From an uncultured Actinomycetes bacterium (GTDB taxonomy: Bacteria; Actinomycetota; Thermoleophilia; UBA2241): a DNA stretch of 64,000 nt. Positions 20,284 to 48,038 of this stretch are shown piece by piece. The stretch covers positions 608,001-672,000 of the forward strand of contig CAVPVX010000007.1 in NCBI GenBank assembly GCA_963709345.1. The letters are read 5' to 3'. The notes beneath the pieces are model-generated. The model did not search any database and was not told the origin of the DNA. It worked only from the letters and a program-made list of their open reading frames with translations. Both the position numbers and the translations under genes were made by a program. Position 1 is the first letter of the stretch; every line of letters begins with the position of its first letter.

Positions 20284-22386
20284 TCACTCTCCTTGCGGGG
20301 CCTCAGGGCCTTTCGGCCCGGCCCCGGCGTCATTGGGATCGCCGATCATCGTCTTCTGCCCGGTGGCATGCGTACGGGGCAGCTCCACATGGAACGTCGT
20401 ACCGCGATCGGTCTCGCTGTCGAACCAGATGGTCCCGTTGTGCATCTTGACGATCCCGTAGCTTATGGGCAGGCCGAGGCCGGTACCCTTGCCGATGCTC
20501 TTGGTGGTGAAGAAGGGCTGGAAGACCTTGTCGCGGGCGCTCTGCGGGATGCCCGCGCCCTCGTCCCGCACCGACAGGCGGATGCGCCCGGTCTCGGGCA
20601 CCTCGCAGGCACTGACGGACACGGCGCCGTCGCGGCCCTCCATCGCCTCGACGCCGTTCTTCACGAGATTGATGAGGACCTGCGTCATCTGATCGCGGTC
20701 GAGGTCTGCCCGCAGACCCGGGGCCACGTCGACGATCAGCTCGACCGCGTGTCCACTCGGCTCGATGGTCGCGATCGCAGAATCGACCGCCTGACGGACG
20801 ACGGCGAGCACGTCTTCGGTCTGCAGGTGCACGCGGCTCTGGCGGGCGAAGTCGAGCAGGTTACCGACGATCTTCTTGCAGCGCTCGCCCTCTTCCGCGA
20901 CGAGCTTCAGGTCGTGGTCGAGGTCGTCGCGGTCGTTCAGTTTCTTCCCGAGAATGTGGATGTAGAGCAGGATCGTGCTCAGCGGGTTGTTGAGCTCGTG
21001 GGCGACGCCGGCCGCCATCTGGCCCATGCTGGCCAGCTTCTCGGTGTTGATGATGTGCCGGTGCACGTCGCGCAGGTCGCTCCAGGGCACGTTCAGCTCG
21101 GTGCAGACGCGCTCCGCCTGGTCGATCATGAAGGGCAGGCACATCGCGTCCTCCGCCATGCCGCAGTGCACGGCGACGGCCTTGGCCCGGCAGGTCTGGT
21201 AGCCGCACGCGCCGCAGTTGAGCTCGTCTTCGGGGAAGAACTTGTTGGTGCGCGCGAGGATCTCGCGGATCTCGTCCTCGGTCGGCTCGGTGAGGCGCTG
21301 GTCGTCGCTCACGTAGGCGCGGCCGAGCGGCAGGCCGGCGAAGCCCGCACGTGCGTCGTCGATCGGCTCGTCCGCGGCGGCGTCCGCGGCTTCCTGCTCC
21401 CGCCGGCACTCCGCGACGTAGTCGCTCACGCGGCGCTTGCGCAAGAGGCCGGGTTCTGAGGAGTTGATGCCCGGCCCACAGTAGCACCCGCGACACATGA
21501 GAGCCTCGACGAGCAGAGCACGGTCGGTCTCGAGCTCGCCGAGGCTGTCGAGCACCGCGACGGTCTCGTCGTGACCGCTGACCACCAGCACGTCGGGGTC
21601 GAGGATGCCGCGGTCCATGTTGGCGGTCTCGAGCAGGCCGCCGGGCAGCGGGAAGACCCGCGCCCGCCCCGCAGCCGGCTCGTCCCACACGGCCGCCGCG
21701 GCCATCTCCGGGACGACACCCCGTTCGGCCAGCAGGCGGTGTGCCTCCTGGAGCGTCAGGACCTCGTCGATGACGTCCGGCAGCAGCTCGTCGTGGGCCT
21801 CGGCCTTCTTGGCGACGCACGGACCGACGAACACGCAGTTGACCTCGTCGCCGTGAAGACCCTTGACGGCCAGAGCCGCGGCGATCATCGGCGAGACGAT
21901 CGGCACCAGCCGGTCGACGAACTCGGGACGATACTTGCGCACGTACTCCGCCACGGCCGGGCAAGCGGTGGCGATATGGATCCCGGTCGGGTTGGCGGCG
22001 AGATACTCTTCGTAGGCGCGACTCACCAGGTCGGCGCCTTGAGCGACCTCGACGACGTAGTCGAAGCCCGCGGCCTTGAAGGCGCCGACGACCTGCTCCG
22101 GCGGCGCATCGAAGCCGGCGGGGAACGACGGCGCCAGCAGTGCCGCGACCGGTACGTCCTCCTCGAGGAGCCAGGATGCGCGTTCGAGGCCGCTCGCATA
22201 CGTCTTGGCGTTCTGCGAGCACACCAGCGTGCAGTTGCCGCAGGAGATGCAGCGCTCGTGGACCACGACAGCCTGCCCGTCCTCCACGCGGATCGCCTGG
22301 GCCGGGCAGTCGCGGACGCATGTGTAGCAGCGCCGGCAGTTCTGCTTGATCGTCCTGATGACGCCTTCCATGGGAGCCTCCGTCAC
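20284..22386 (-). CDS. Sensory [FeFe]-hydrogenase (group C-type) fused to a histidine kinase
   Basis: N-terminal 2x[4Fe-4S]; H-cluster-like motifs ATACP, GPCVAKKAE and EALMCRGC; FeS domain NCGACGYQTC..C; AHELNNPL H-box and HATPase (FFTTK, GTGLGL). Confidence 0.9.
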   Translation of the reverse strand: MTEAPMEGVIRTIKQNCRRCYTCVRDCPAQAIRVEDGQAVVVHERCISCGNCTLVCSQNAKTYASGLERASWLLEEDVPVAALLAPSFPAGFDAPPEQVVGAFKAAGFDYVVEVAQGADLVSRAYEEYLAANPTGIHIATACPAVAEYVRKYRPEFVDRLVPIVSPMIAAALAVKGLHGDEVNCVFVGPCVAKKAEAHDELLPDVIDEVLTLQEAHRLLAERGVVPEMAAAAVWDEPAAGRARVFPLPGGLLETANMDRGILDPDVLVVSGHDETVAVLDSLGELETDRALLVEALMCRGCYCGPGINSSEPGLLRKRRVSDYVAECRREQEAADAAADEPIDDARAGFAGLPLGRAYVSDDQRLTEPTEDEIREILARTNKFFPEDELNCGACGYQTCRAKAVAVHCGMAEDAMCLPFMIDQAERVCTELNVPWSDLRDVHRHIINTEKLASMGQMAAGVAHELNNPLSTILLYIHILGKKLNDRDDLDHDLKLVAEEGERCKKIVGNLLDFARQSRVHLQTEDVLAVVRQAVDSAIATIEPSGHAVELIVDVAPGLRADLDRDQMTQVLINLVKNGVEAMEGRDGAVSVSACEVPETGRIRLSVRDEGAGIPQSARDKVFQPFFTTKSIGKGTGLGLPISYGIVKMHNGTIWFDSETDRGTTFHVELPRTHATGQKTMIGDPNDAGAGPKGPEAPQGE

Positions 22387-24113
22387 ACTGCCGCCGTATC
22401 GTGCCCGCGGCGGCGGCTCGTGTAGCTGCGATGCAGGAGGCGATGCGAGACCTCGCTCAGCGGGCGCCCGAGGAGGCCCTCGTACAGCGCCCGCAGCTCG
22501 GCGTTCTCGTGCGAGCGCCGAGCCCGGGAGCGCCTGTCCACTTCGTAGAGGCGCTGCAGCCGCTCCTTGATCGCCGCGGCGTCGGTGTCGTAGGGCTGGC
22601 CGCCGCCGCCGATGCAGCCGCCGGGGCAGCTCATCACTTCGACGAAGTGCACCGGCGGATCGGCGCTCAACAGCTCGTCGAGGACGTCCTTGACGCGGCC
22701 GAGACCGTTGACGACGGCGAGGCCGAGCTCGGCCTCACCGGCGCTCACCGCGAACCGGCGCACGCCCTCGGAGCCGCGAGCCTCGCTCACCTTGGGGCCG
22801 CCGGCGAGCTCCTCGCCGGCGGCGAGCAGGTAGGCGGTCCGCAGCGCAGCCTCCATGACGCCGCCGCTGCCGGCGAAGAGGCGACCGGCGCCGCTCGCCT
22901 CGGAGAAGGGCGGGTCGAGCGGCTCCAGCTCGGTCGCGTGCGCGAAATCCACGCCGAACCGGCCCCAGAGGTGCTCCAGTTCACGCGTGGTGAGCACGTA
23001 GTCCACGTCACCGAGGTCTTGTGCCTCGAACTTCTTCGCCGTGCAGGGCATGATCGAGACGACCACGAGCTTGTCCCGGTCGACCCCCGCCCGATCGGGG
23101 TAGATCTCCTTGATCAGCGCGCCGGCCATCTGCTGCGGGCTCTTGCAGGTCGAGAGGTGCGGGATCAACTCCGGGTGGTGTGTCTCGACGAAGTGTACCC
23201 ACGCCGGCGAGCAGCTCGTGAACATCGGCAGCACGCCGCCGTTCTCGATGCGGTCCAGCAGCTCGCTGCCCTCTTCCATGATCGTGAGGTCGGCGGCGAA
23301 GCCGGTGTCGAAGACGGCGTCGAAGCCGACCCGCTTGAGGGAGGAGGCGAGGCGCTCCAGCATTGTGCGCACGCCCTCGCTCTTGCTGTGGCCTTCGAGA
23401 AGCGTCGCCGGCACGGCGGGCGCCACCTGGGCGACGACCACGGTGTCGGGATCCGCGAGCGCGTCGACCACCTCGTCGACCTGGTCGCGTTCGACGATGG
23501 CGCCGGTCGGGCAGACCCGGGCGCACTGACCGCAGAACACGCAGTCGCTGACGTTGAGTCCAAGGCTGAAGCCCGGCGCGACCCTGGTCTGGAAGCCACG
23601 CCCGACGTAGTCGATGGCGCCCACACCCTGGATGTCGTGGCAGACGGTGACGCAGCGGCCACAGAGGACGCACTTGTCGGGGTCGCGCCAGAGTGCCGGC
23701 GAGCTGATGTCCATGGGGTGATGCTTGACCGCCCCGACGTACCGGCGCCGGCGCACGCCGAGGTCGGCGGCGAGATCCGCGAGCTCGCAGTCGCCGCCTC
23801 GCGCGCAGGAGAGGCAGTCCTGCGGATGACTCGCGACCAGCAGTTCCAGGATCGCGCGCCGCGCCTTGAGCACGCGCGGCGTGTGCGTCTGGACGCTGAG
23901 GCCGTCGCGCGCCTCGAGGGTGCAGCTCGTCTGCAGGCGCGGAACGCCCTCGACCTCGACGATGCACAGGCGGCACGAGGCCGACGGTGACGGCGCCCAG
24001 TCAAGGGAACACAGGTGCGGGATCTCGATACCGGCGCGGCGGGCCACCTGCAGGACGGTCTCGCCCTCCGTCACCTCGATCTCTCTGCCGTTGATGGTGA
24101 TGCTCATGGTCAT
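22383..24113 (-). CDS. hydA: [FeFe]-hydrogenase catalytic subunit (group A3-type)
   Basis: [2Fe-2S], His-ligated 4Fe and 2x[4Fe-4S] domains; P1 FTSCSPAW, P2 MPCTAKKFE, P3 EVMSCPGGCIGGGGQP; start MTMSITING. Confidence 0.95.
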   Translation of the reverse strand: MTMSITINGREIEVTEGETVLQVARRAGIEIPHLCSLDWAPSPSASCRLCIVEVEGVPRLQTSCTLEARDGLSVQTHTPRVLKARRAILELLVASHPQDCLSCARGGDCELADLAADLGVRRRRYVGAVKHHPMDISSPALWRDPDKCVLCGRCVTVCHDIQGVGAIDYVGRGFQTRVAPGFSLGLNVSDCVFCGQCARVCPTGAIVERDQVDEVVDALADPDTVVVAQVAPAVPATLLEGHSKSEGVRTMLERLASSLKRVGFDAVFDTGFAADLTIMEEGSELLDRIENGGVLPMFTSCSPAWVHFVETHHPELIPHLSTCKSPQQMAGALIKEIYPDRAGVDRDKLVVVSIMPCTAKKFEAQDLGDVDYVLTTRELEHLWGRFGVDFAHATELEPLDPPFSEASGAGRLFAGSGGVMEAALRTAYLLAAGEELAGGPKVSEARGSEGVRRFAVSAGEAELGLAVVNGLGRVKDVLDELLSADPPVHFVEVMSCPGGCIGGGGQPYDTDAAAIKERLQRLYEVDRRSRARRSHENAELRALYEGLLGRPLSEVSHRLLHRSYTSRRRGHDTAAV

Positions 24114-27143: not shown

Positions 27144-27899
27144 TCATGACCGAATCCCCTGCCCCGCCGGCCGGACCGGCGCGGCCTCGGAGTCGGCGCC
27201 CCCCCGAACGCCGGCCACTTCGTCGCCGGCGACCGGGCCGTGCACCAGAAACGAGAGCAACTCGAGCTTGGATGCGATATCCGTGTGTTCTACGTAGCAG
27301 CCCTCGGGCGGCGTGACCCGCTTGGGCACGAAGTTCAGGATCGCGCGCGCGCCGGCCGCGGCGACTCGGTCGACCAACGCCTGGAGACCTTCCGGCCGGG
27401 TGGCGACGACCGCCATGTGGATGTCGAGCTCGCGCAGGACGGTCTCGAGATGGTCGACGTGATAGCAGCGCCGGCCGGCGTACATGCGGCCGACCTTCTC
27501 GGCGTCGACGTCGAAGGCGGCGGCGATATGGAAGCCGCGCTCCTCGAAGCCGCGGTAGGAGAGCAGGGCGCGTCCGAGATCACCGACCCCGAAGAGCGCG
27601 ATGGACTGGGTCTCGTCGGTGCCCATGATGCGGCTGATCGTGCGGCTCATCTGGAAGACGTTGTAGCCGCGGGAGATGTGCCCGAAGGTCCCGAAGGAGG
27701 CGAGGTCACGGCGAAGCTGCGCCGGCGTGACGCCGACGAGCTCGGCAAGCTGCTGGGAGTGGATGTCCTCGACACCGTCAGTGTGGAGCTCCTCCAACAC
27801 CTTCCGATAGACGCTGAGACGCTCGACCGTCTGCAGGGAAACCCGCTTCTCCGGGCGATGCAACTGCTTCGGTGCGGTGCCGCCGGTCTGTTCGCTCAT
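27144..27899 (-). CDS. rex: Redox-sensing transcriptional repressor Rex
   Basis: TVERLSVY, QLRRDLASFG..GYNV, Rossmann GVGDLGRAL and ILNFVP motifs. Confidence 0.95.
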   Translation of the reverse strand: MSEQTGGTAPKQLHRPEKRVSLQTVERLSVYRKVLEELHTDGVEDIHSQQLAELVGVTPAQLRRDLASFGTFGHISRGYNVFQMSRTISRIMGTDETQSIALFGVGDLGRALLSYRGFEERGFHIAAAFDVDAEKVGRMYAGRRCYHVDHLETVLRELDIHMAVVATRPEGLQALVDRVAAAGARAILNFVPKRVTPPEGCYVEHTDIASKLELLSFLVHGPVAGDEVAGVRGGADSEAAPVRPAGQGIRS

Positions 27900-27926
27900 G
27901 CTCAACGGTCCTCCCACGTCTCCTCC

Positions 27927-27962
27927 AGCTGTGACTCTATTCACAGCTCTACGCGCTGTCAA
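27927..27962 (-). promoter_or_regulatory. rex promoter (TTGACA-17-TAGAGT) with a Rex operator over the -10
   Basis: -35 at 27962-27957 and -10 at 27939-27934; palindrome AGCTGTGA-ctctat-TCACAGCT at 27927-27948. Confidence 0.82.
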
Positions 27963-32188: not shown

Positions 32189-32446
<258 letters not shown>

Positions 32447-37337: not shown

Positions 37338-38188
37338 GACGGCCCCTGCAGAGCGCCGACGAGATCGTCCAGCGTCAGCGGCAACGGGCCGTCGAGACGG
37401 CGCCCGCGGCCGGCGAGCTCGAGCGCGACCTCACCGGCCGCGGGCAGCCCGAGACCCAGACGCCGCACCAGAGCGCCGTCGCCGAAGAGACCGGCGGCGG
37501 CGCCCGCGTACACGACAGACCCGCGTTCGAGCGCCAGCGCGCGGTCGGCGCCGGGCACCTCGTCCATCTCCTGCGTGACGAAGACGATCGCGAGGCCGCC
37601 GTCCCGCAGCGCCGCGACGGCCTCGAGCACCTCTTCGCGGCCCGCCGGGTCGAGCATCGCCGTCGGCTCGTCCAGCACCAGCACCTTCCGCGGCACGGCC
37701 AGGACGCCCGCCAGCGCCGTGCGCTGCTTCTGGCCGCCGGAGAGCAGGTGCGGCTCGCGGCGGCGCAGGTCGCCCAGCCCGAACCTCTCAAGCATCTCGT
37801 CGACCCGGGCCCGCATGTCGGCCGGCGGCCAGCCGAGGTTCTCGAGGCCGAAGGCTATGTCGTCCTCCACGCAGTCGGCGACCAGCTGGTTCTCGGGATT
37901 CTGGAAAAGGACGCCCACGTCTCGCCGCGCCCCGAACCTGCCATCCTCGCTCAGCAGGTCGTGCCCGACGGCGACGGCGCGACGCGCGAAGGCGGCCTTC
38001 TCGAGGCCGCCCAGGATACGCGCCAGCGTGGACTTGCCGGAGCCGTTGGCGCCCACGACGGCGAGTGTCCGCCCGGCCTCGACCACCAGGGAGAGGTCGG
38101 CGAGCGCGTCGGCGCGCGCGCCGGCGTACCGGTAGTGCAGACCGGCGATGTCGACGAGCGGAGGTGAGCTGGGCAGAGGCGGGATCAT
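37334..38188 (-). CDS. ecfA1: ECF transporter ATPase A1
   Basis: GANGSGKST, FQNPENQ, LSGGQKQR and DEPTAMLDP motifs. Confidence 0.92.
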   Translation of the reverse strand: MIPPLPSSPPLVDIAGLHYRYAGARADALADLSLVVEAGRTLAVVGANGSGKSTLARILGGLEKAAFARRAVAVGHDLLSEDGRFGARRDVGVLFQNPENQLVADCVEDDIAFGLENLGWPPADMRARVDEMLERFGLGDLRRREPHLLSGGQKQRTALAGVLAVPRKVLVLDEPTAMLDPAGREEVLEAVAALRDGGLAIVFVTQEMDEVPGADRALALERGSVVYAGAAAGLFGDGALVRRLGLGLPAAGEVALELAGRGRRLDGPLPLTLDDLVGALQGPS

Positions 38189-38282
38189 ACGAGCCGAAGC
38201 TTATCGCATCGTCCACGGCGGCCCGGCCGTCCCGGCCGGCATGGCCACCGGATGCCTCGCCGGCCGCTGCGATGGGAGCGGA

Positions 38283-38331
38283 ACCATGAGCGACGGGGCG
38301 GGCCCTTCGAGCCCGCCCCGTCGCTCATGGT
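38283..38331. terminator. Long perfect hairpin closing the hdr-like operon
   Basis: ACCATGAGCGACGGGGCGGGC-ccttcga-GCCCGCCCCGTCGCTCATGGT, 21-bp stem. Confidence 0.75.
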
Positions 38332-38342
38332 CATTGGGTACT

Positions 38343-38381
38343 GCCGACGGACGGCGCGACCGCGCCGCGAGATCGTCAGCC
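38343..38381 (-). promoter_or_regulatory. Putative bacterial SECIS element after the UGA of the FmdB-like gene
   Basis: UGA-G-GCUGACG-aucucg-CGGCGC-GGUC-GCGCCG-uc-CGUCGGC; the GGUC apical loop starts 20 nt after the UGA. Confidence 0.65.
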
Positions 38382-38582
38382 TCAGCCGAACCCGCTGCTG
38401 CGCTGCGGAGCGCCGCACGACGGATCCGAGAGGGCGCCGTTGCGGAAGAAGCTCGCGAGCGTCTGCCGCACATGCTGCGAGCGACACTCGGGACAGCGCT
38501 TCTGTTTGTCGCGTATCGCGACCCGCGTCAGAACCTCGAACGTGTGGCCGCAGTCCTTGCAGATGAGATCGATGTGCGCCAT
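38376..38582 (-). CDS. FmdB-family zinc-ribbon protein, probable C-terminal selenocysteine (GFG-U-G)
   Basis: CKDC..CPEC zinc ribbon; TTC GGC TGA GGC TGA followed by a SECIS-like hairpin. If the UGA is a stop, the gene ends at 38382. Confidence 0.8.
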
Positions 38583-38616
38583 GGGCGGTGCCTGCTCCTT
38601 GGGTGAGTCGGGGGCG

Positions 38617-39099
38617 TCAGATGAACAGGTTGACGTTGGCCTCGTCGGCCTTTCCGAGGTAGGCCGCCACGCCCTCGAACTCGATGTCGTCGATGAGCTC
38701 CTCCTTCGTGAAGCCCAGGATGTCCATCGAGAGCGTGCAAGCGACGAACTCCACGCCCATCTCGCGGGCGCTGTCGAAGAGCTCCTCGAGCGACATTCCG
38801 CCGGCGTCCTTTGTGGCCTTCCTCATCATGGGACTGCCGGCTCCGGCGAAGTTCATCTTGGAGAGTCCGAGCTTCTTCGTGCCCTTGGGCATCATCCGGC
38901 CGAACATCGACTGAAGCGTAGACTTCTTGGCCTCGGTCGGGACCTTCTCCGGCTTGCGGAGGATGTTCAGACCCCAGAAGGTGCAGAAGATCGTGACGTC
39001 GTCGCCCATAGCGGCGGCGCCGTTGGCGATGATGAGTGCCGCCATCACCTTGTCGAAGTCGCCACTGAACAGGATGATCGTCTTCTTGGTCGTGTCCAC
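38617..39099 (-). CDS. DsrE/DrsE_2-family sulfur-relay protein
   Basis: FSGDFDK, IIANGAAAMG, FCTFWGL and ACTLSMD (conserved Cys) motifs. Confidence 0.9.
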   Translation of the reverse strand: MDTTKKTIILFSGDFDKVMAALIIANGAAAMGDDVTIFCTFWGLNILRKPEKVPTEAKKSTLQSMFGRMMPKGTKKLGLSKMNFAGAGSPMMRKATKDAGGMSLEELFDSAREMGVEFVACTLSMDILGFTKEELIDDIEFEGVAAYLGKADEANVNLFI

Positions 39100-39163
39100 T
39101 CCAGCACCTCCAGTGCTGTCCGTTTGTTGCCTTTCGAGACCGGGGGCCTGCGCGGGCCCTGCC

Positions 39164-40150
39164 TCAGGAGGCGGATGCCTCGCGCAGGTACTCGGAGATA
39201 TCCTTGAACCGCATGGTGTCGCCGGCGGCGGTACTCAGGTTGACGAAGCACATGGGGCACATCGTGACGCACTCGGGCGCGGCGGCTCGCAGCTGCTCGA
39301 CGCGCTTCTGCGCGTTGGCGGCCGCCTTCTGCGGGTAGAGTGACTCGACGGGGCCGCCGCAGCACCAGGTCTGGCGACCCGCGTACTCCGGGTCGAGGAC
39401 GGTGACGCCGGCGGCCGCAAGCAGCTCGCGCGGCTCGTCGACGACGCCCTCGTAGCGGGCGAAGACGCAGGAGTCGTGCAGCACGACTTCAGCGGGGGAG
39501 ATGCCGGCGCGTTTGCCGCCGCTTCCGTTGCCGCCGAAGTCCCTCTCCGCCAGCACCTCGAGGTAGCTCTTCACCTCGACGTCGTACCCCTTGAGGATCT
39601 TGGGATACACGGTGCGAAGCATCGTCGTGGTGTGCGGGTCGACGGTGATCACGGTCTTCACGGCGTGCTTCTTGAACACCGCGTGGACCTTCTTGGCGTG
39701 CTCGACGACGACCTCGTCGAGCCCGAGATCGTAGGCCAGGGCGCCCGAGTACAGGTCGTCCTCGTAGAGAGCGCCGAACTCGACGCCGGCGTCGCGGAGC
39801 AGATGCACGACATTGATCGGCACCTGATCGTAGCGGGCGCGCTCCTTCGCCGAGGGGCGCGCCATGAACGCCGAGATGTTGACGAACCGGTTCACCTTTC
39901 GACCGAGGCCGGTGTACTTGGCCAGCCATGAGTCGCCGAACTTCACCTCGGCCTTGACGAGGCCTTCGATGTACGGGATGAGCTGGTACATCATCCCCGT
40001 GTAGAGCACGGTCGCGCCGCCGCGCGGGAGGCCGAGGCCCTCGGTCCACTTGGTCGCCACCTTGGGGGACAGCGGCAGCACCGACTTGCGCAGGCGCAGG
40101 TTGTCGCCGAGGATGCCGATCACGTCGCCGGTCGGGAGAGGCATCGTCAT
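39164..40150 (-). CDS. CCG-domain Fe-S protein (HdrB/HdrD-like) with only the C-terminal CCG intact
   Basis: HDSC..WCCGG..MCPMC; the first repeat is degenerate (YTGM, DLYSG, VDPHT). Confidence 0.85.
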   Translation of the reverse strand: MTMPLPTGDVIGILGDNLRLRKSVLPLSPKVATKWTEGLGLPRGGATVLYTGMMYQLIPYIEGLVKAEVKFGDSWLAKYTGLGRKVNRFVNISAFMARPSAKERARYDQVPINVVHLLRDAGVEFGALYEDDLYSGALAYDLGLDEVVVEHAKKVHAVFKKHAVKTVITVDPHTTTMLRTVYPKILKGYDVEVKSYLEVLAERDFGGNGSGGKRAGISPAEVVLHDSCVFARYEGVVDEPRELLAAAGVTVLDPEYAGRQTWCCGGPVESLYPQKAAANAQKRVEQLRAAAPECVTMCPMCFVNLSTAAGDTMRFKDISEYLREASAS

Positions 40151-40461
40151 CCCTCCCCGTGGCCGAACGTCGTACGGACGATGTGATGCCGGAGCGTGCG
40201 CACGTTCTCGGCGATGTGTACGCCGGACGGGCAGTTCTCCTCGCACATCTTGCACAGCAGACAGGAGAAGACGCTCTCCGTCTCCTCCCGAACCTTGTCC
40301 TCCATGCCGAGAAGCACGTGGCGGAACAGCTTGCGCACCTCGACGTCGACACCCATCGGGCAGATGGCGGAGCACACCCCGCAGTTCATGCAGGCGTCGG
40401 CGTTGAACTCATCAGAGCACGCCAGTTCCGTCGCCAGCCCGGGGTTCACGAGAGCAGTCAT
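40147..40461 (-). CDS. HdrC-like 2x[4Fe-4S] protein
   Basis: CMNCGVCSAICP and CLLCKMCEENCP. Confidence 0.88.
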   Translation of the reverse strand: MTALVNPGLATELACSDEFNADACMNCGVCSAICPMGVDVEVRKLFRHVLLGMEDKVREETESVFSCLLCKMCEENCPSGVHIAENVRTLRHHIVRTTFGHGEG

Positions 40462-40751
40462 TTGCCCTCCCTCTCCACCACTTGATAGCGGTAGTAGCCG
40501 TCGTCGGTGACTTCTTTGATCTCGGCGAGCCAGCCGTACTTGCGCAGGCCCATGACCCAGAACATCACCTCATGGGTCGGGCGCTCGACGGCGGCCGCGA
40601 TCTCGGGCACCGTGAGCGGTCCGTCTTCAAGCGCTGCGAGGATGCGGCGGCGCATGACCTGCTCGTCGCGGACGACCTCACGGACGTCGCGTTGTCCTGG
40701 AGCGGCGTCCCGGATCACGGGTCGCCGGCCTGACCCGGTGGTCTGCGTCAT
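40458..40751 (-). CDS. Small winged-helix protein within the hdr operon
   Basis: ILAALEDGPLTVPEIA...GLRKYG...YYRY; overlaps both neighbours. Confidence 0.8.
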   Translation of the reverse strand: MTQTTGSGRRPVIRDAAPGQRDVREVVRDEQVMRRRILAALEDGPLTVPEIAAAVERPTHEVMFWVMGLRKYGWLAEIKEVTDDGYYRYQVVEREGK

Positions 40752-42487
40752 GAGCAGCTCACCTCCATCATGCCGTCGATCATCGATCTGATCTGGGCGT
40801 CGGTGTAGCCCTGCAGGTCGGTCGCGTCCACGGGGCAGACGGGCACGCAGCCGCCGCAGCCCTTGCACGCCGTCTTGATGACCTGCGCCACCTGTTTGCC
40901 GTCCATCTCGACCTGCTCGATGGCGTCGTAGGGACACGCCTCAAGACACTTGCCGCACCAGGTGCAGGCGGCGGTGTCGACGATGGCGACCATCGGGTCG
41001 AGCTCGGCGTAACCGCGCTTGAGCATGGCGCCACTGTGCGTGACGGCGGCGAGGCCGCTGGCGACCGCCTCGGCCGAGTTCTTCGGCGACTGGCAGGAGC
41101 CACAGATGGTGACGCCGTCCACGATGGTCTCCACCGGGCGCAGCTTGGGGTGGATCTCGTTGTAGAAGCCGTCGTTGCCGACCGGCAGCTTGAGTACGCT
41201 GACGAGCTCGCCGTTCTCGCGCGGTACCATGCCGGTGACGAGCACGACGAGGTCGGCGGGTATGGCGACTTCTTCGCCCCCGGTGAGCAGGTCCTTCGTG
41301 GTGACCTTGAGACCGCCGGACGGGAGCTTCTCCACCTCCGGCGGTTCGTCGTCCGGCATGCGCAGATACAGCGAGCCCTTCTCACGCGACTCGTTCCAGA
41401 GCAGCTCGTACTTGCCGTAGGTGCGGATGTCGCGGTAGAGGTGGTACTGGCGCAGTCCGGCGAGGCCCTTCTCGGCCGCCTTGAGCGCAGCGTGCACGGC
41501 GGCTGTGCAGCAGTAGCGCGAGCAGTAGGTGTGAGCGCCTTCGACGCTCTCGTCCTGGCGACTGCCGACGCAGTAGATGTAGGCGATGGTCTTGACGGGC
41601 CGGCCGTTGTACTCGAGCGAACCGGCCGCTTCATCCACCATCTTCTTGAACTCCGGCAGAGTGACGACACCGTCCAGGCCGTAGCCGAACTCGCCGGCCG
41701 CCGGCTCGTAGGTGTCCGCGCCGGTGGCGACGATGATCGAGCCCACGTCGACCTGGACGGTCTCGAGCTGCTCGCCGTGGATGGCGATCGTCACCTGGTT
41801 GTTGCCGAAGCTGCCGCTCTTGGCCATCAGCTCGGCGTTCGTGTACACGGTGATCGCCGGATGAGCGCGCACCTTCTCTTCGAGGGTCGCGATCAGCTCG
41901 GCGCCCTTGCGCTCGTTCGGGTACATCTCGGCGAATCCGGCGACGCGGCCGCCGAGCTGCGGCTCCTTCTCGACGAGGAATACGCCGAGGCCGATCTCGG
42001 CCAAGCCGAGGGCGGCGCGCAGGCCGGCCACCCCGCCGCCCACCACAAGGCTTCTCGGCGTCGTCTCGACGACGATCGGCTCGAGCGGCTCGGTGAGGCG
42101 CGTCCGGTTGATTCCGGCGCGGACGAGCCGCACCGCCTTCTCGGTCGCGCCCGTATGGTCGTCGGTGTGCGTCCACGAGCACTGCTCGCGGACGTTGACC
42201 TGCGTGTACTGGAACGGGTTCATGCCGGCGCGCTTGGCCACGTCACGGAAGGTGACCGTGTGCAGCTTGGGCGAGCACGAGGCGACGACGAGCGCGTCGA
42301 GGCCCTGCTCCTCCGCGTCCTGCACGATCTCCTGCTGGGTCGCGTCGGAACAGGTGAACATGGCGGAGCGGGCGACGACGACGTCGTCGTCTCCCTTGAT
42401 CTCCTCGACGACCTTGTCGACGTCGACGTAGTCGCCGATGTTGCCGCCGCACTGACAGACGTACACGCCGATCTTGCGGCCGCTCAT
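40748..42487 (-). CDS. hdrA: Heterodisulfide reductase subunit A-like flavoprotein
   Basis: IGVYVCQCGGNI, ASCSP, NVREQCSW, GGGVAG, CVGSR, CSRYCC and HPKLRP motifs; C-terminal 2x[4Fe-4S]. Confidence 0.92.
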   Translation of the reverse strand: MSGRKIGVYVCQCGGNIGDYVDVDKVVEEIKGDDDVVVARSAMFTCSDATQQEIVQDAEEQGLDALVVASCSPKLHTVTFRDVAKRAGMNPFQYTQVNVREQCSWTHTDDHTGATEKAVRLVRAGINRTRLTEPLEPIVVETTPRSLVVGGGVAGLRAALGLAEIGLGVFLVEKEPQLGGRVAGFAEMYPNERKGAELIATLEEKVRAHPAITVYTNAELMAKSGSFGNNQVTIAIHGEQLETVQVDVGSIIVATGADTYEPAAGEFGYGLDGVVTLPEFKKMVDEAAGSLEYNGRPVKTIAYIYCVGSRQDESVEGAHTYCSRYCCTAAVHAALKAAEKGLAGLRQYHLYRDIRTYGKYELLWNESREKGSLYLRMPDDEPPEVEKLPSGGLKVTTKDLLTGGEEVAIPADLVVLVTGMVPRENGELVSVLKLPVGNDGFYNEIHPKLRPVETIVDGVTICGSCQSPKNSAEAVASGLAAVTHSGAMLKRGYAELDPMVAIVDTAACTWCGKCLEACPYDAIEQVEMDGKQVAQVIKTACKGCGGCVPVCPVDATDLQGYTDAQIRSMIDGMMEVSCS

Positions 42488-45255
42488 GCCTTCACCTTCA
42501 CTTTCGACTCTTCCGCGACTTTCGCTCTCTCCAGATGAGCAGCGGCCTGTGCGACCGCGGCGCCCGCGTGGAGAATGGAGTCGGGGATGTCCTTGGCCCC
42601 GGCGGCCGCGCCCGCGACGAACACGCCGGGGAGGTTGGTGCGGCCGGGGTCCATGTCTTCGTCGGCTTCGCCGACGTAGTAGTAGTCGTCGAGCGCCAGG
42701 GCCTCGCCGGCGCCGTCGAAAAGCTCGGCGACGCCGCGACCGGGCTGGACGCCGACCGCGAGCACGACCATGTCGTGCTCCGTCTCGACGAGCGCGCTGC
42801 CGTTCTCGATGTCCTCGTAGCGGAGCGTGAGGTTGCCTTCGTCGGTCTCGGTGATACCCGAGACGCGGCCCTTCACGAAGTTGGCGCCCATGTCTTTGGC
42901 CTGCTCGTAGAACTCGTCGTACCCCTTGCCCACGGAGCGTACGTCGATGTAGTAGACGGTGACGTCGGCGAGCGGCAGGGCGCCCATGATGAGCTGGTTC
43001 TGCTTGACCGAGTACATGCAGCAGATCTTGGAGCACAGCGGGTTGTCCACGGTGTCGTCGCGGGACCCGGTGCACAGGATGTAGGCGATGTTGTCCGGCA
43101 CCTTGCCGTCGCTGGGGCGAAGCACGGCGTTGTACGGCCGGGTCGGCGCCAGCAGGCGGTCCATCTGCATGCCGGTGACGACGTTCTTGTAGCGGCCGAA
43201 TCCGTACTGCGGCTTCGCGTCGGCCGGGAAGAGGTTGAAGCCCGTGGCCAGGACCACGCTGCCGAACTCCGCCTCGATCTCCTTCTCGCGCATGCTGAAG
43301 TCGATGCAGTCGGCGGGGCAGATGTCCACGCACGCGTGGCACTCGGAGCAGACACCGCAGTCGAGGCAGCGGCTCGCGCTGTGCAGCGCCTCTTCCTCGG
43401 TCATCGTCTGCTCGTCCTCGTAGAACTCGCCCGGCGCAAGTGTCACGGTCTCCCGCGGGTTGAGAGGCTCGATGCGGCTGTACGTCGCCTGCCGCCTCAG
43501 AACGGCCTCCTTGTCCACCATCGGCAGAGGGCCGTCGAATGCCGCGGGATCCAGCTCCAGGCCCTGGAGGAAGCGGTCGATCATGAAGGCCGCCCGCCAG
43601 CCCTGGCCGGCGGCGGAAGTGATCATCGAGGGGCCGGAGACGACGTCGCCGGCGGCAAACACGCGAGGCACGCTGGTCTGCAGGGTGCCCGGATCCGCCT
43701 TGATCGTCCCGGTGCTGTTGATGGGGAGACCGAAGGCGCCCGCGTCGGGTCTCATGCCCGCGGCGACGACCACGAGGTCGCACTCAAGGCTTCCGAGGGT
43801 CTCGTCCTCATACTGCGGGCTGAAGCTGCCCTCCTCGTCGAACACCGAGACGCAACGCAGGAGCTCGACGCTGCGCACGGCGTCGCCGCCGCTGAACTGA
43901 CGCACCCCGCACGAGTTCTGGAAGGCGACGCCCTCCTGGCGAGCCTCCTCGACCTCCCAGGCATGCGCGGGCATCTGCTCGTGGGCTTCGAGGCTCGCCA
44001 CCTGTACCGATGCGGCCTTCAGCCGCAGCGCGGTGCGCGCCGCATCGAGGGCGACGTTGCCGCCTCCGACCACAACGACACGCTTGCCCTCGACGTCCAG
44101 CTCTTCGCCAAGCTTGGCGGCGCGGAGGAAGTCGGCGGAGCGCATGACGCCGCGAAGATCCTCGCCGGGCACGCCGAGCTTCGTGCCGAGGTGCGTACCC
44201 ACAGCCACGAGCACGGCGTCGTAGCCTGCCTCCTTCAACTCGTCCAGATCCTCGACGCGCGAGTCCGTCTCTATCACCACGCCGGCCGCCGTCACATTCG
44301 CGAGGTCCTGGTCGACGACTTCGTTCGGGAGGCGGTACGGCGGGAGCGCCAGACGCAGCAGACCACCCGGCTGAGACGCGGCTTCGAAGACCTTCACCCC
44401 GTAGCCCTTGCGGGCCAGATGCCAGGCCGCGGTCACACCGGCCGGGCCGGAGCCGATCACCGCCACCTTCTTACCGTTGGGATCCGCGATCTTGACGCTC
44501 GTCTCGCCCTTGGCGTAGTGAGTGTCTGCGATGAAGCGCTTGAGGCGGCGGATGGAGAGGGATCCCTCCAGATCGCCCCGCATGCACTCAGCCTCGCACG
44601 GGGCGTAGCACGCCCGGCCGAGGCTGCCGACCAGCGGCGTCGCCTCGCAGACAAGGTCGAACGCCTTCTCGTACTCGCCGCTGCGTATGAGCGCGACATA
44701 GCCGTGCGCCTTGATGCCCGCAGGGCACTCGTAGCTGCACGGCGAGACGCCCTCGCGGCTGATCACGGCCTTCTTCGGCACCGCCTGGGGGAAGGCGATG
44801 TACGCCGCCCGCCGCGACACCATGTCGGCGTTGAACTCGTCGGGGACGGCGACGCTGCAGGCCATCTCGCACTGGCGACAGCCGGTGCAGGCGACCTCGT
44901 CGACGTATTTCGGCTTCTGCAGGATCCGGGCGTGATAGGTGCCGTCGCCGTTGGCGCGGATGCCCTCGACCTCGGCGTACGTGAGTACGTCGATGTTGGG
45001 GTGGTGGATGGTCGCGGCCATCTTGGGGGTGGAGATGCAGCTGGCGCAGTCGAGCGTCGGGAACACCTTGCTGAGCAGGATCATCTTGCCGCCGACGCTG
45101 GCGTCCTTCTCGACGACGAGGACCTTGTAGCCCATGTCGCCGAGCTTGAGCGCCGACTCCATACCGCCGATGCCGCTGCCGACCACCAGAGCGTCGTACT
45201 TGAGCGCTGCACCTTCGGCGCCCCGCTCGATAGCTTCGCTTCGTTGGCTGTTCAT
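42484..45255 (-). CDS. HdrL-like protein: HdrA with an inserted GltD-type NAD(P)H oxidoreductase module
   Basis: GSGIGG, FPTLDCASC and an inserted ferredoxin; CPAG, GRACYAPCE, GSGPAG, GGGNVALD and RCLDC; then CTGSR and CSKICCMYSVK. Confidence 0.9.
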   Translation of the reverse strand: MNSQRSEAIERGAEGAALKYDALVVGSGIGGMESALKLGDMGYKVLVVEKDASVGGKMILLSKVFPTLDCASCISTPKMAATIHHPNIDVLTYAEVEGIRANGDGTYHARILQKPKYVDEVACTGCRQCEMACSVAVPDEFNADMVSRRAAYIAFPQAVPKKAVISREGVSPCSYECPAGIKAHGYVALIRSGEYEKAFDLVCEATPLVGSLGRACYAPCEAECMRGDLEGSLSIRRLKRFIADTHYAKGETSVKIADPNGKKVAVIGSGPAGVTAAWHLARKGYGVKVFEAASQPGGLLRLALPPYRLPNEVVDQDLANVTAAGVVIETDSRVEDLDELKEAGYDAVLVAVGTHLGTKLGVPGEDLRGVMRSADFLRAAKLGEELDVEGKRVVVVGGGNVALDAARTALRLKAASVQVASLEAHEQMPAHAWEVEEARQEGVAFQNSCGVRQFSGGDAVRSVELLRCVSVFDEEGSFSPQYEDETLGSLECDLVVVAAGMRPDAGAFGLPINSTGTIKADPGTLQTSVPRVFAAGDVVSGPSMITSAAGQGWRAAFMIDRFLQGLELDPAAFDGPLPMVDKEAVLRRQATYSRIEPLNPRETVTLAPGEFYEDEQTMTEEEALHSASRCLDCGVCSECHACVDICPADCIDFSMREKEIEAEFGSVVLATGFNLFPADAKPQYGFGRYKNVVTGMQMDRLLAPTRPYNAVLRPSDGKVPDNIAYILCTGSRDDTVDNPLCSKICCMYSVKQNQLIMGALPLADVTVYYIDVRSVGKGYDEFYEQAKDMGANFVKGRVSGITETDEGNLTLRYEDIENGSALVETEHDMVVLAVGVQPGRGVAELFDGAGEALALDDYYYVGEADEDMDPGRTNLPGVFVAGAAAGAKDIPDSILHAGAAVAQAAAHLERAKVAEESKVKVKA

Positions 45256-45692
45256 GCGGTCGCCTTCCGGGTCGTCGGTCCCAAGCCGGAGAGGGACTCC
45301 GAGTATTCGTGCATGTAGTTGGTGAAGGGCTCCGCGCAGACGGAACAGATCGCGGCCATGCGCACTCTCTGCGGCTCGTAGCCCCTCTCGACCAGCAGTG
45401 CCTGCGCGTCCATCATGATCTTGGCGGTGCGCTGGCTGCAGTCGGGCAGGAACGCGCACTCCTCGCCGTCGGCGGCGATGAAGACTCCGTCGAAACCCTG
45501 CTCCATGGCGTAGAGGATCCAGCTCGGCTTGATACCACTGGTGCACGGAACGCTGATCACCATGACCTTGGGCGAGTAGTGCATGTGCGAACTGCCGGCC
45601 AGGTCGATGCCCGGGTCGGAGATGTTGTTGGTGCTGAAGACCAGGATGCGCGGGGAATATGCCTGATCGTCGAGTGCGGCAGTCTCGGCCAT
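45252..45692 (-). CDS. MvhD/FlpD-like Fe-S subunit (atypical Cys pattern)
   Basis: ILVF....SDPGIDLAG, VPC, GFDGVF and RVRM motifs; N-terminal CxxC absent, C-terminal CSVC present. Confidence 0.85.
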   Translation of the reverse strand: MAETAALDDQAYSPRILVFSTNNISDPGIDLAGSSHMHYSPKVMVISVPCTSGIKPSWILYAMEQGFDGVFIAADGEECAFLPDCSQRTAKIMMDAQALLVERGYEPQRVRMAAICSVCAEPFTNYMHEYSESLSGLGPTTRKATA

Positions 45693-45694
45693 CG

Positions 45695-45946
45695 TCACTT
45701 CATCTTCTTCACGAAGAGGCGCATGAAGCCCGGCTCCTCGACCACGCCCAGATACTCGTGACCCATCTTCTTGGACCACGCCGGGAGGTCCTTGGTCGTG
45801 CCGCTGTCGGTCGCCTGGACCTCCATCACGCCGCCTACGGAGACGCTGGGAATGCCCTTCTTGGCGGCCAGGATGGGACCAGGGCACGAGGTGCCTCGCG
45901 CGTCGACGACTTTCTCTACCTGGATGTTGGCGAGGTCTTCGGACAT
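45695..45946 (-). CDS. tusA: TusA/SirA family sulfur carrier
   Basis: VDARGTSCPGP (CPxP persulfide Cys) and D.G...DLPAW motifs. Confidence 0.92.
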   Translation of the reverse strand: MSEDLANIQVEKVVDARGTSCPGPILAAKKGIPSVSVGGVMEVQATDSGTTKDLPAWSKKMGHEYLGVVEEPGFMRLFVKKMK

Positions 45947-45990
45947 GATGGTCTCCTTCGTGCTTGCTAGACTGGATTCGACGCTTGTGC

Positions 45991-46008
45991 TTGTGATTTC
46001 TTTCTCAA
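45991..46008. promoter_or_regulatory. Rex-like operator upstream of tusA
   Basis: TTGTGAT-TTCT-TTCTCAA, two mismatches to TTGTGAA-N4-TTCACAA, in an AT-rich intergenic patch. Confidence 0.65.
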
Positions 46009-46083
46009 TCCAAGGGCCGGTGAGCCCCTCTTCAATGTGCTGACGGAGCGGTGTCCTGCCGCGTGGCCGGCGGCTTCGGTGTC

Positions 46084-46512
46084 TCACACCTGAGGCGCCA
46101 CCGGCGCATCCGGCGCCCCAGTCCCATCCGGCCGGGCACGCGCGGCATCGAGGAACTCGGCGACCTGCAGCGATTCACCCTGTGCGACGTGCTGCTCCAC
46201 CAGCGCCTCGCGGATGAGGGCGCACGCCTCCATGAATTTGCGGTTCGTGACGCGGTAGTACACGGTCTGAGCCTCTTTGCGCGACGCCACGAGCCGGCGC
46301 TCTTTGAGCACGCGCAGGTGCTGCGAGACGTTGTGGACCGAGATACCGACCTCCTCGGCGAGGTCGCCCACGCACTTCTCCTCGTCGCAGATGGCGTGCA
46401 GGATCGCCTGACGATGCTCGTTCGCGAGAGCCCGACAGAGGTCTGCATGCATCCGAAAGAGCGGCTTGAGATCCGGCGCGGCGGGCGTGTCACTGTCGTT
46501 GCATACTTGCAT
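46084..46512 (-). CDS. ArsR/SmtB family transcriptional regulator
   Basis: ALANEHR..IL, CVGDLA, VSQHLRVL and VYYR motifs; Cys residues in several helices. Confidence 0.92.
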   Translation of the reverse strand: MQVCNDSDTPAAPDLKPLFRMHADLCRALANEHRQAILHAICDEEKCVGDLAEEVGISVHNVSQHLRVLKERRLVASRKEAQTVYYRVTNRKFMEACALIREALVEQHVAQGESLQVAEFLDAARARPDGTGAPDAPVAPQV

Positions 46513-46738: not shown

Positions 46739-47089
46739 CTACACCAGCTCGATGTACGCCTGCTCGCTGCCGTCGCCGGGGCGCGGGCCGAGCTTGATGA
46801 TGCGCGTGTACCCGCCGTGACGGTCGGCGTAGCGAGGCGCCACGTCGTTGAACAGCTTGTACACGATCTTCTTGTTGCGCAGCATGGCGATCGCCTGACG
46901 GCGCGCGTGCAGATCGCCGCGCTTGCCCAGCGTGATGGCCTCTTCGACCATCGGGCGGACTTCCTTGGCGCGCGCTACGCCGGTCTTGACCTTCTCGTGC
47001 TCGAGGACCTGGCAGGCGAGACCCGACAGCAGCGACCGCCGCTGGTCGGGAGCCATGTTGAACTTGCGGCCTGAGTTCTGATGGCGCAT
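46739..47089 (-). CDS. rplQ: 50S ribosomal protein bL17
   Basis: MRHQ...GGYTRIIKLGPRPGDG. Confidence 0.96.
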   Translation of the reverse strand: MRHQNSGRKFNMAPDQRRSLLSGLACQVLEHEKVKTGVARAKEVRPMVEEAITLGKRGDLHARRQAIAMLRNKKIVYKLFNDVAPRYADRHGGYTRIIKLGPRPGDGSEQAYIELV

Positions 47090-47090
47090 G

Positions 47091-48038
47091 TTACTCGTCA
47101 CCCCGCAAAGAGAGCCCGCGCTCGATGAGCTTTTCCTTGACCTCGTCGATGCTCTTCTTGCCGAAGTTCGGGATGTTGAGCAGCTCGGCCTCTGTCTTGG
47201 AGACCAGGTCGCCGACGGTCTGGATACCCTCGCGCTTGAGGCAATTGTAGGAACGGACGCCGAGCTCGAGCTCCTCGATGAGCACGTCGTCCATGCCGCC
47301 TCCGACCTGCATGGAGTCAAGCCCCTCGATCGGGAGCTCCTCGCTGGAACGCGTGCGGTCGGGGTCGGTGAAGATCGACATCCGGTCGACGAGGATCTCG
47401 GCGGCTTCCCTCAGCGCCTCTTCGGGCAGGAGAGCACCGTTGGTCGTGATGTCGAGTATGAGCTTGTCGTAGTCTGTACGCTGGCCGACACGGGCGCTCT
47501 CGACGTGGTACGAGACACGCTTGATGGGGCTGAAGATCGAATCCATCGGAATGACCCCGATGACCGTCTCCGGCGTCTTGTTGCCCTCAGCCTGCACGTA
47601 GCCCGTACCGCGCCTGACGGTGATCAGCATCTCGATGGCGCCGCCGTCGGAGAGCGTCGCGATCTGATGATCCGGGTTGAGGATCTCCAGCTCCGCCGGG
47701 ATGTCGACGTCGGCGGCCACGACCTTGCCGGGCTTGTCCTTGTACAAGCGGACCTGGACCTCGTCGAGCTCACCATGCAGGCGGCAGACGAGCTCCTTGA
47801 GGTTCAGGATGACGTCGGTGACGTCTTCCTTGACGCCCTTGACGGTGGTGAACTCGTGGGCGACGCCTTCGATCTTGACTGAACTGACGGCTGCGCCCTC
47901 GAGCGACGACAGCAGGACCCGGCGCAGCGCGTTGCCGAACGTATGCCCGAAACCGCGATCGAGAGGCTCGACCTCAAAGCGCGCGCGGTTGCCGGCGAGC
48001 TGCTCGCGGGTGATGTTGGGCATCTGAAACTGTAGCAA
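47091..48038 (-). CDS. rpoA: RNA polymerase alpha subunit
   Basis: [22 protein letters not shown] and VRSYNCLKR motifs; TTG start after AGGAGG. Confidence 0.97.

Follow-up and report, generated by a model that had tools for sequence, protein, structure and literature searches.

The locus described here lies in a 64,000-nucleotide (nt) stretch of contig CAVPVX010000007.1 from an uncultured Thermoleophilia bacterium, which we refer to as the window. It comprises a small gene on the minus strand for an FmdB-type zinc-ribbon protein (the ribbon gene) and a two-part RNA hairpin at the 3' end of this gene. The last codons of the ribbon gene are TCG TGC GGC GCT CCG CAG CGC AGC AGC GGG TTC GGC TGA GGC TGA, in which the first TGA, where gene callers end the protein, is followed by one glycine codon and a second TGA. 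We consider it likely that this gene encodes a selenoprotein of 68 residues, with selenocysteine (Sec, U) at the first TGA, and not a protein of 66 residues. With this TGA read as Sec, the tail becomes SCGAPQRSSGFG-U-G-stop. The minus strand continues past the tail as AGC GGG TTC GGC TGA GGC TGA CGA TCT CG CGGCGC GGTC GCGCCG TC CGTCGGC.

That the open reading frame is real is shown by its family matches, by the ribosome-binding site ahead of its ATG and by thirty two database homologues. The protein was placed in the FmdB family by two CxxC motifs (C8xxC11 and C30xxC33) within an N-terminal domain of some 50 residues and by matches above the curated cut-offs, with 40.2 bits for Zn_ribbon_8 (Pfam PF09723; cut-off 34.4) and 40.2 bits for TIGR02605 (cut-off 31.3). 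The zinc-ligand cysteines at residues 8, 11, 30 and 33 are all specified by ordinary Cys codons. These four and Cys56, which belongs to the CGAP motif of the tail, form the invariant columns in the alignment of orthologue clusters. An AlphaFold2 model built from a 33-sequence alignment shows the ribbon and a short helix in residues 1-48, with a mean predicted local distance difference test (pLDDT) score of 80, and coil with no secondary structure in residues 49-66, with a pLDDT of 47 over the last block. The predicted architecture joins a four-Cys zinc ribbon to a C-terminal tail, unstructured and about 20 residues long, that carries the invariant Cys56 and the proposed Sec67. Searches of the ESM Atlas for look-alikes and of PDB sequences with the ribbon returned generic FmdB or zinc-ribbon matches only. 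The FmdB/Zn_ribbon_8 family is widespread and we know of no established function for it; none was assigned by the scans or the database names met in this analysis.

The hairpin has a lower and an upper stem closed by a GGUC loop (Table 1). RNAfold of positions 38260-38400 on the minus strand gave exactly this two-part hairpin together with a second perfect hairpin downstream, the whole segment folding at -88.7 kcal/mol (z = -5.5) with none of 200 shuffles as stable. The bacterial model of the selenocysteine insertion sequence (SECIS), in the part of its published description available to us, specifies a loop of 3-9 nt, a stem of 4-16 base pairs (bp), a G in the first two loop positions, a spacing of 16-37 nt and a folding free energy (dG) of -7.5 kcal/mol or lower (PMC13188914). 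On this model the window hairpin has a dG of -12.8 kcal/mol, a spacing of 20 nt, a loop of 4 nt and a stem of 7 bp. An earlier reading of the window, made from the letters only (the sequence-only reading), had pointed to the TTC GGC TGA GGC TGA end and to a two-part hairpin with its loop 20 nt past the first UGA, and both are present as described. The exact hairpin occurs once in the window.

The second hairpin corresponds to a perfect inverted repeat at 38283-38331, located 45 nt past the first hairpin between the ribbon gene and ecfA, with arms of 21 nt by the repeat finder and 24 bp in the fold. It is also unique in the window and may represent the real transcript end.

Table 1. Positions of the ribbon gene, its hairpin, the paralogous genes and the neighbouring genes, given in window coordinates or in those of the related loci (L numbers)
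Feature	Position	Strand	Basis or remark
FmdB-type zinc-ribbon coding sequence as ended by gene callers	38385..38582	minus	66 codons, MAHIDLICKDCGH...CGAPQRSSGFG
AAGGAG ribosome-binding site of ribbon gene	38595..38600	minus	read from sequence; 12 nt before ATG
Last Phe codon	38390-38388	minus	
Last Gly codon	38387-38385	minus	
First TGA, proposed Sec67 codon	38384-38382	minus	TGA in 16/16 orthologues, 3/3 paralogues
GGC, proposed Gly68 codon	38381-38379	minus	GGC in 18/19 genes, GGT in L013 (synonymous)
Second TGA, proposed true stop, within lower stem	38378-38376	minus	in-frame stop at most two codons on in 19/19
SECIS-like two-part hairpin	38343..38380	minus	fold, SECIS model fit, conservation, covariation
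Lower stem GCUGACG/CGUCGGC	38380-38374 with 38349-38343	minus	7 pairs, one G.U
Upper stem GCGGCGC/GCGCCGU	38368-38362 with 38357-38351	minus	6 G-C pairs and one G.U
Apical loop GGUC	38361-38358	minus	20 nt between UGA and loop
Paralogue genes	L006 at 11004; L011 at 10518; L014 at 283 (minus)		
DsrE2-like (DrsE_2), upstream neighbour	38620..39099	minus	Pfam PF13686, E = 4e-60
HdrB-like (CCG domain)	39164-40150	minus	Pfam/NCBIfam scans
HdrC-like	40147-40461	minus	Pfam/NCBIfam scans
HdrA-like	40748-42487	minus	Pfam/NCBIfam scans
GltD/HdrA-like fusion	42487-45546	minus	Pfam/NCBIfam scans
MvhD/FlpD-like	45255-45887	minus	Pfam/NCBIfam scans
TusA-like	45698-46087	minus	Pfam/NCBIfam scans
ArsR-type helix-turn-helix	46087-46512	minus	Pfam/NCBIfam scans

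Conservation of the gene end and the hairpin

Fifteen related loci of at most 20 kb each (L001-L015) were obtained from a genome-contig scan, all of them from metagenome-assembled genomes labelled Thermoleophilia, Actinomycetes or Actinomycetota. Together with the window they provide sixteen orthologues of the ribbon gene, and three paralogues bring the number of genes compared to nineteen. At the DNA level the first TGA follows G-[FY]-G in the window and the loci, with the exception of L014 where the preceding residues are GGG. In nine of the sixteen orthologues a stop codon comes immediately after the GGY codon, whereas one further codon intervenes in the others: TGC in L001, L006, L007 and L008, the synonymous TGT in L004, CGC in L012 and CTC in L014. 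Over the nineteen genes, the tails would be U-G-stop in twelve, U-G-C-stop in five, U-G-R in one and U-G-L in one, and the final stop is TGA in all except L007, which has TAG.

The three paralogues belong to a second FmdB family (MALYDFVC...SSGCGAPxxSPFG) and were uncovered by a scan with the hairpin pattern. In all three the gene ends in TGA GGC TGA as it does in the window, and the same hairpin is present. The sequence-only reading had named two findings that would speak against it, a genome without Sec machinery and homologues that end in TAA or TAG and lack the hairpin; no homologue of the latter kind was found, and all nineteen genes have TGA-GGY, a second in-frame stop within two codons and the hairpin. 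As read from the alignments, the ribbon gene shows both a conserved in-frame UGA with reading continued past it and a downstream stem-loop that fits the bacterial SECIS model, two of the features by which a bacterial selenoprotein gene is recognized.

A word-index search of protein databases found thirty two orthologue clusters with 59-85% identity to the ribbon protein. Twenty five of them are exactly 66 residues long and thirty one end in [FY]G, while all seventeen database clusters of the paralogue family end in [PG]FG although the length of their linker varies. The expectation that standard gene callers would truncate the protein is borne out to this extent, and the database copies in these clusters would be truncated if the Sec assignment is right. 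In one locus (L015:10001-10200) the ribbon gene is frameshifted in the middle, through an assembly error or as a pseudogene, and its 3' end with TGA GGC TGA and the hairpin is intact. Five database entries (P0034, P0036, P0038, P0046 and P0055) resemble frameshifted read-throughs of the same DNA motif.

The hairpin is conserved more strongly than the coding sequence of the ribbon gene. Among the sixteen orthologues, pairwise identity is 56-67% over the last ten codons, 100% at the TGA, 96% at the GGY codon, 52% in the spacer and 87.5% in the 18-nt hairpin, and it drops to 30% in the 30 nt after the hairpin. In the alignment of the nineteen sequences, standard pairs occupy 98.5% of 133 cells and compensatory changes were observed in three of the seven pairs, such as CGACGC/GCGUCG in L013. 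The covariation score was reached by none of 500 shuffles, a figure that is not a probability because the sequences are related, and it collapsed in the slid controls. Fifteen of the nineteen minimum free energy folds show the conserved upper hairpin enclosed by a lower helix, whose 3' strand varies in sequence from locus to locus yet still pairs with the GGCUGA region. The SECIS model was passed with a contiguous stem by seventeen of the nineteen elements, L005 and L010 having one C.A mismatch each. Counted from the U of the UGA, the loop starts at +22 to +24 in the fifteen genes where it reads GGUC or GGUU, and at +23 to +25 in L004 and L006-L008, where it reads GUC.

How often such features arise by chance was gauged on the genes of 90 codons or more that were called in the window and the fifteen loci, 262 in all. 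The stop codon is TGA in 168 of them (64%), TAG in 78 and TAA in 16. Among the 168 TGA-ending genes, GGN comes next in seventeen (10%), another in-frame stop lies no more than two codons on in thirteen (8%), and some hairpin allowed by the SECIS model lies downstream of thirty one; in each of these groups three are ribbon genes. The hairpin taken alone is thus weak evidence. A dG of -11 kcal/mol or lower at a spacing of 18-21 nt was found for only three of the 168, all of them ribbon genes that the caller had extended upstream, and for none of the other 165. It is the conservation among the relatives that, in our assessment of the sequences, puts the hairpin beyond chance.

A third zinc-ribbon family (VEPRQxRCxxCQ...CPxCGSxDVGxCW), with long Gly/Arg-rich tails, was found a few kb from the FmdB ribbons in nine loci (L003, L005, L006, L008, L010, L011, L012, L014 and L015; for example L011:7504 on the plus strand). 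It served as an internal control: its genes stop at TGA in seven cases and at TAG in two, and none has TGA-GGN followed by a second stop. A looser regular expression for the hairpin gave thirty four matches, fifteen of them away from ribbon genes. None of these fifteen has the TGA-GGN-stop layout, and six have a TGA 13-26 nt upstream in any frame. The 14-nt core of the hairpin was also met antisense in a large homologous gene on the minus strand of two loci (L002:4904-4917 and L005:9843-9856), where a TGA in a non-coding frame precedes it by 13 nt, and was set aside as a chance or antisense match.

Decoding of the first TGA

In the reading that we favour, UGA67 would be decoded as selenocysteine by SelB carrying Sec-tRNA(Sec). 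SelB would be recruited by the SECIS hairpin, which starts right after the Sec codon and presents its GGUC loop 20 nt downstream, with the Gly68 codon and the true stop lying within the lower stem. Translation would then add Gly68, or Gly-Cys, Gly-Arg or Gly-Leu in some of the relatives, before ending, in the window gene at the second UGA; failure to insert Sec would yield the 66-residue form ending in GFG. With just one or two codons left to translate after Sec, the SECIS element would be situated almost wholly in untranslated RNA.

A number of results weigh against this reading. No tRNA-Sec was found in the window, where the only tRNA is one for Gln, or in the fifteen loci, and SelA, SelB and SelD were absent among 223 open reading frames (ORFs) scanned with NCBIfam (150 at E <= 1e-20 and 73 at E <= 1e-40). 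The absence of sel genes says little, as only about 300 kb spread over sixteen genomes were covered; in addition, ORFs were called with a filter on GC content at third codon positions (GC3), which overlooked genes in L009 and L013, two loci of lower GC content; in the window it produced gaps at about 22.4-24.1, 28.9-29.8, 30.5-32.2 and 32.4-33.7 kb. No other TGA-interrupted gene was identified in the window and the loci, the eleven candidates all proving to be adjacent genes or wrong frames. The Rfam gathering scan of the window reported tRNA only and no SECIS family, and the only matches in an Rfam scan of 38200-38600 at E <= 10 were to miRNA and sRNA models, all by chance and located on the second hairpin.

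The family itself adds further points of this kind. Cysteine was found at the Sec position in none of the thirty two orthologue clusters and in none of the seventeen paralogue clusters, and no Cys-containing clade emerged from a HMMER search of 1.84 billion representatives with the read-through protein (TGA translated as Cys) or from word-index searches with the paralogue and P0044. An interchange of Cys and UGA at this position, which the sequence-only reading had proposed to look for, is therefore missing in the close homologues. It is represented only by two distant single representatives, P0044 (...TFGCGGPPLS) and P0139 (...GGCGMRF), in which the G-C-G falls in a low-complexity region; P0044 had no relatives in the word-index search. 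Two sequences of one cluster (P0008 and P0181) end in ...GYSWG, with Trp at the proposed Sec position. Of 103 small representatives of the wider family, thirty one end in [FY]G and ten in F[ST], and because F-[GST] ends are this common a true C-terminus at FG would be normal for the family.

One ORF in a related locus (L011:5844-6590) was considered as a second selenoprotein. Its match to the NCBIfam model 'metal-binding double selenoprotein MbdU' (E = 2e-50, profile positions 32-269 of 468) is confined to the N-terminal half, and the ORF was rejected, being short and having no in-frame Sec codon.

One alternative is an ordinary stop. The first TGA would then be a real stop and the hairpin a 3' RNA element with some other job; it might terminate or attenuate transcription as an 'I-shaped' actinobacterial element, protect the RNA from 3'-exonucleases or bind a protein, the GGC-TGA being kept as part of the structure. 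A GC-rich hairpin right after a stop codon, TGA as the commonest stop, a lower stem that pairs with the GGCUGA stretch in most of the folds, the frequent F-[GST] ends and the missing Sec machinery (in window and loci) and Cys homologues (in the clusters) all agree with it. A terminator is however difficult to reconcile with the surroundings of the hairpin. No T-run follows the first hairpin or flanks the 38283-38331 repeat on either side, a scan of 37900-39300 for intrinsic terminators found no terminator-like site at either hairpin, and the separate, much stronger hairpin 45 nt on could itself end the transcript. In four relatives (L005, L007, L012 and L015) a gene for a cupin of the cysteine dioxygenase (CDO) type starts 63-85 nt past the first TGA of the ribbon gene in the same orientation, which places the hairpin inside an operon there. 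Terminators keep their shape and would not be expected to keep 87.5% sequence identity between flanks at 30%. More generally, a structural role does not require a near-identical sequence across two paralogous families, and it leaves unexplained both the codon-like changes (GGC/GGT and TGC/TGT) and the second in-frame stop within two codons, present in all nineteen genes as against thirteen of the 168 TGA-ending genes in the control set. We regard this alternative as unlikely.

Those codon-like features would be shared by a programmed read-through of the UGA that does not involve selenium, in which the hairpin prompts a near-cognate tRNA to insert Trp, Cys or Arg and a minor form longer by two to three residues is made. 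Such a mechanism accounts for the same conserved features as Sec insertion, the in-frame second stop included, and the ...GYSWG ends supply a natural variant with Trp at this position. It does not account for a hairpin whose loop sequence and spacing agree with the SelB-type model, and an extension of two residues with an ordinary amino acid offers no evident function. We also know of no bacterial precedent for hairpin-driven UGA read-through that adds two residues, which counts against this mechanism as well, and we judge it to be very improbable. Use of TGA as a sense codon or an artefact of assembly has hardly any probability at all, as only the read-through pattern itself would speak for either. 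An alternative genetic code is excluded by the stop usage, with TGA ending 168 of the 262 called genes, and an assembly artefact does not fit a pattern that recurs in sixteen independent assemblies. Sec insertion is accordingly the reading that we retain as likely.

Gene neighbourhood and a possible role of the tail

The ribbon gene is the last gene of a same-strand cluster (38376-46512, minus) that begins with the ArsR-type gene and contains the TusA-, Hdr- and DsrE2-like genes listed in Table 1. The DsrE2-like gene ends 34 nt before the ATG of the ribbon gene. None of the Hdr and DsrE2 matches reaches its NCBIfam equivalog cut-off, the DsrE2 score of this neighbour being 81.8 bits against a cut-off of 210. 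The cluster lies between rplQ (46742-47320) and the ecfA-ecfA'-ecfT-truA genes, which usually follow the ribosomal-protein operon directly.

A different set of neighbours was observed in the relatives. The usual order there is an OsmC-like gene on the opposite strand, then genes for an ArsR-type regulator, a YgaP-like membrane domain, a 65-residue 4Fe-4S ferredoxin, the ribbon and a CDO-type cupin, an order composed from partial scans, with all six genes shown together in no single locus. The YgaP-like gene was identified in two loci (L005 and L010), the OsmC-like and ArsR-type genes in six each and the cupin in seven. In fourteen of the fifteen loci the TGA of the upstream ORF overlaps the ATG of the ribbon gene (CTGATG), and in eight of these the ORF was identified as a ferredoxin. 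Hdr-like genes occur upstream of the ribbon also in L007, L011 and L015. The genes located 3' of the hairpin differ as well, with ecfA in the window, CDO-like genes in the relatives and a RACo-like gene after the L006 paralogue; the hairpin thus travels with the 3' end of the ribbon gene and not with the downstream gene.

The ferredoxin-like ORF (MIxVNVHACPQNHPCPA...CTDCGACTxVC) has 65 residues and occurs in L001-L013 and L015, for example at L011:9804-9998. The window ribbon has no adjoining 65-residue ferredoxin, and the only small ferredoxin of the window (32192-32416) shows 35% identity over 40 residues. Elsewhere in the window (20287-22734, minus), a domain like the large subunit of [FeFe]-hydrogenase is fused to a HisKA/HATPase histidine kinase and looks like a sensory hydrogenase. 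Response regulators, NuoF-like and NuoE-like genes and a Rex-type regulator (27147-27962) were found near this fusion.

The gene context suggests, as a tentative proposal that may well prove wrong, that the tail acts as a mobile redox or chalcogen-carrying arm serviced by the adjacent iron-sulfur and sulfur-relay proteins. The sequence-only reading had likewise proposed a redox or sulfur-carrying arm, possibly as the substrate of the Hdr-like complex. The arm could form a selenenylsulfide between Cys56 and Sec67, a bond from Sec67 to Cys69 where the tail is U-G-C, or an adduct of the persulfide type. Its servicing partners would be the TusA-, DsrE2- and HdrABC-like proteins in the window, and in most relatives the translationally coupled 65-residue 4Fe-4S ferredoxin and the cysteine-dioxygenase-type cupin under an ArsR-type regulator. 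If the Sec is real, its conservation near the C-terminus would single out the tail as the working part of this FmdB protein and would point to redox or chalcogen-transfer chemistry.

A more far-reaching and rather doubtful proposal is that the Cys/Sec tail is itself the physiological 'heterodisulfide', a genetically encoded swinging arm reduced by iron-sulfur proteins, and that many FmdB proteins of bacteria in general that end in [FY]G are truncated selenoproteins of this type. A selenenylsulfide or a sulfur adduct borne by the selenol would then be reduced by the HdrB/C-like proteins in the window or by the coupled ferredoxin in the relatives. The [FY]G-ended group among the small representatives includes several of the low-GC 'MPIYEY' type. 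If this proposal is right, a function would be gained for the long-unexplained FmdB family.

Comparison with known systems

An FmdB-family selenoprotein, known from two reads in the metagenome of Global Ocean Sampling (GOS), has already been catalogued (PMC2398784; listed in PMC9312934 and PMC13188914). According to the parts of these sources available to us, its Sec is situated in the zinc-binding motif, given as CxxU and listed as U/CxxU or UxxU (PMC2398784, PMC13188914). The ribbon protein belongs to the same family (TIGR02605 / COG2331) but does not show the GOS-type CxxU or UxxU, as its four ribbon cysteines are intact and the proposed Sec lies in the tail, as the last residue but one.

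Sec close to the C-terminus is known from other families. In UXX-star families 1 and 2 and KCU-star (NF041114, NF041211 and NF033934, described by Haft and co-workers) it lies 1-3 residues from the C-terminus, and the available portion of the catalogue gives a GxGU motif for UXX-star family 2 (PMC13188914). From this position of Sec it follows that the SECIS elements of UXX-star and KCU-star must lie in the 3' untranslated RNA. As far as the listed motif goes, GxGU and the G[FY]G-U of the ribbon tail are alike, with no sequence relationship between the proteins. Read-through proteins were scanned against NCBIfam release 20 (the window protein at E <= 0.01 and four relatives at E <= 10), and they matched none of NF041114, NF041211, NF041212 and NF033934, TIGR02605 being the sole meaningful match.

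In the literature consulted, the BSepDB paper included, no C-terminal Sec was described for the FmdB family, and no paper linking Thermoleophilia to selenoproteins was found; Haft & Tolstoy 2025, which falls outside this coverage, may bear on novelty. The proposed Sec site appears new with respect to the catalogues, whose accessible parts list FmdB selenoproteins with Sec inside CxxC only. If confirmed, it would bring a selenoprotein family to the Thermoleophilia (Actinomycetota).

Animal thioredoxin reductase has a C-terminal redox centre of the sequence Gly-Cys-Sec-Gly. The analogy with this enzyme drawn in the sequence-only reading holds for the flexible C-terminal tail, on which Sec is penultimate and Gly comes last, but it is loose since no Cys adjoins the Sec. 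In the ribbon protein a Gly precedes the proposed Sec, and the nearest Cys is Cys56, located 11 residues upstream, or Cys69 in the U-G-C variants. Thioredoxin reductase is moreover a flavoenzyme whereas the ribbon protein is a zinc ribbon of 7 kDa.

In sulfur relays of the sHdr type, TusA, DsrE-type proteins and a swinging-arm carrier feed an Hdr-like complex. The window resembles these systems in having ArsR-, TusA-, DsrE2-, HdrA-, HdrB- and HdrC-like genes directly upstream of the ribbon gene. It differs from them in that no lipoate-binding protein was seen and in that the Hdr and DsrE2 matches remain under their cut-offs. The immediate partner in fourteen of the fifteen relatives is also different, being a small ferredoxin-type ORF whose stop overlaps the ATG of the ribbon gene.

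The closest parallel for the hairpin is the SECIS element of Escherichia coli fdhF. The sequence-only reading had cited a GGUC loop for this element and a G at the start of the apical loop for bacterial SECIS elements, and we could verify this on the genome sequence (NC_000913.3), where codon 140 encodes Sec and the loop, GGUC, occupies +22 to +25 from the U of the UGA. Loop and spacing are the same as those of the window hairpin, which would make a read-through reporter test in E. coli straightforward. In both cases the stem-loop is located directly 3' of the UGA, with a lower helix that reaches back toward it. The upper stem of the window hairpin is a regular G-C helix of 7-8 bp, in contrast to that of fdhF which reportedly carries a bulged U. 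The fdhF element is part of the coding sequence, whereas the ribbon hairpin lies almost wholly past the proposed true stop; if the Sec assignment holds, it would provide a clean natural example of a bacterial SECIS element almost wholly outside the coding sequence.

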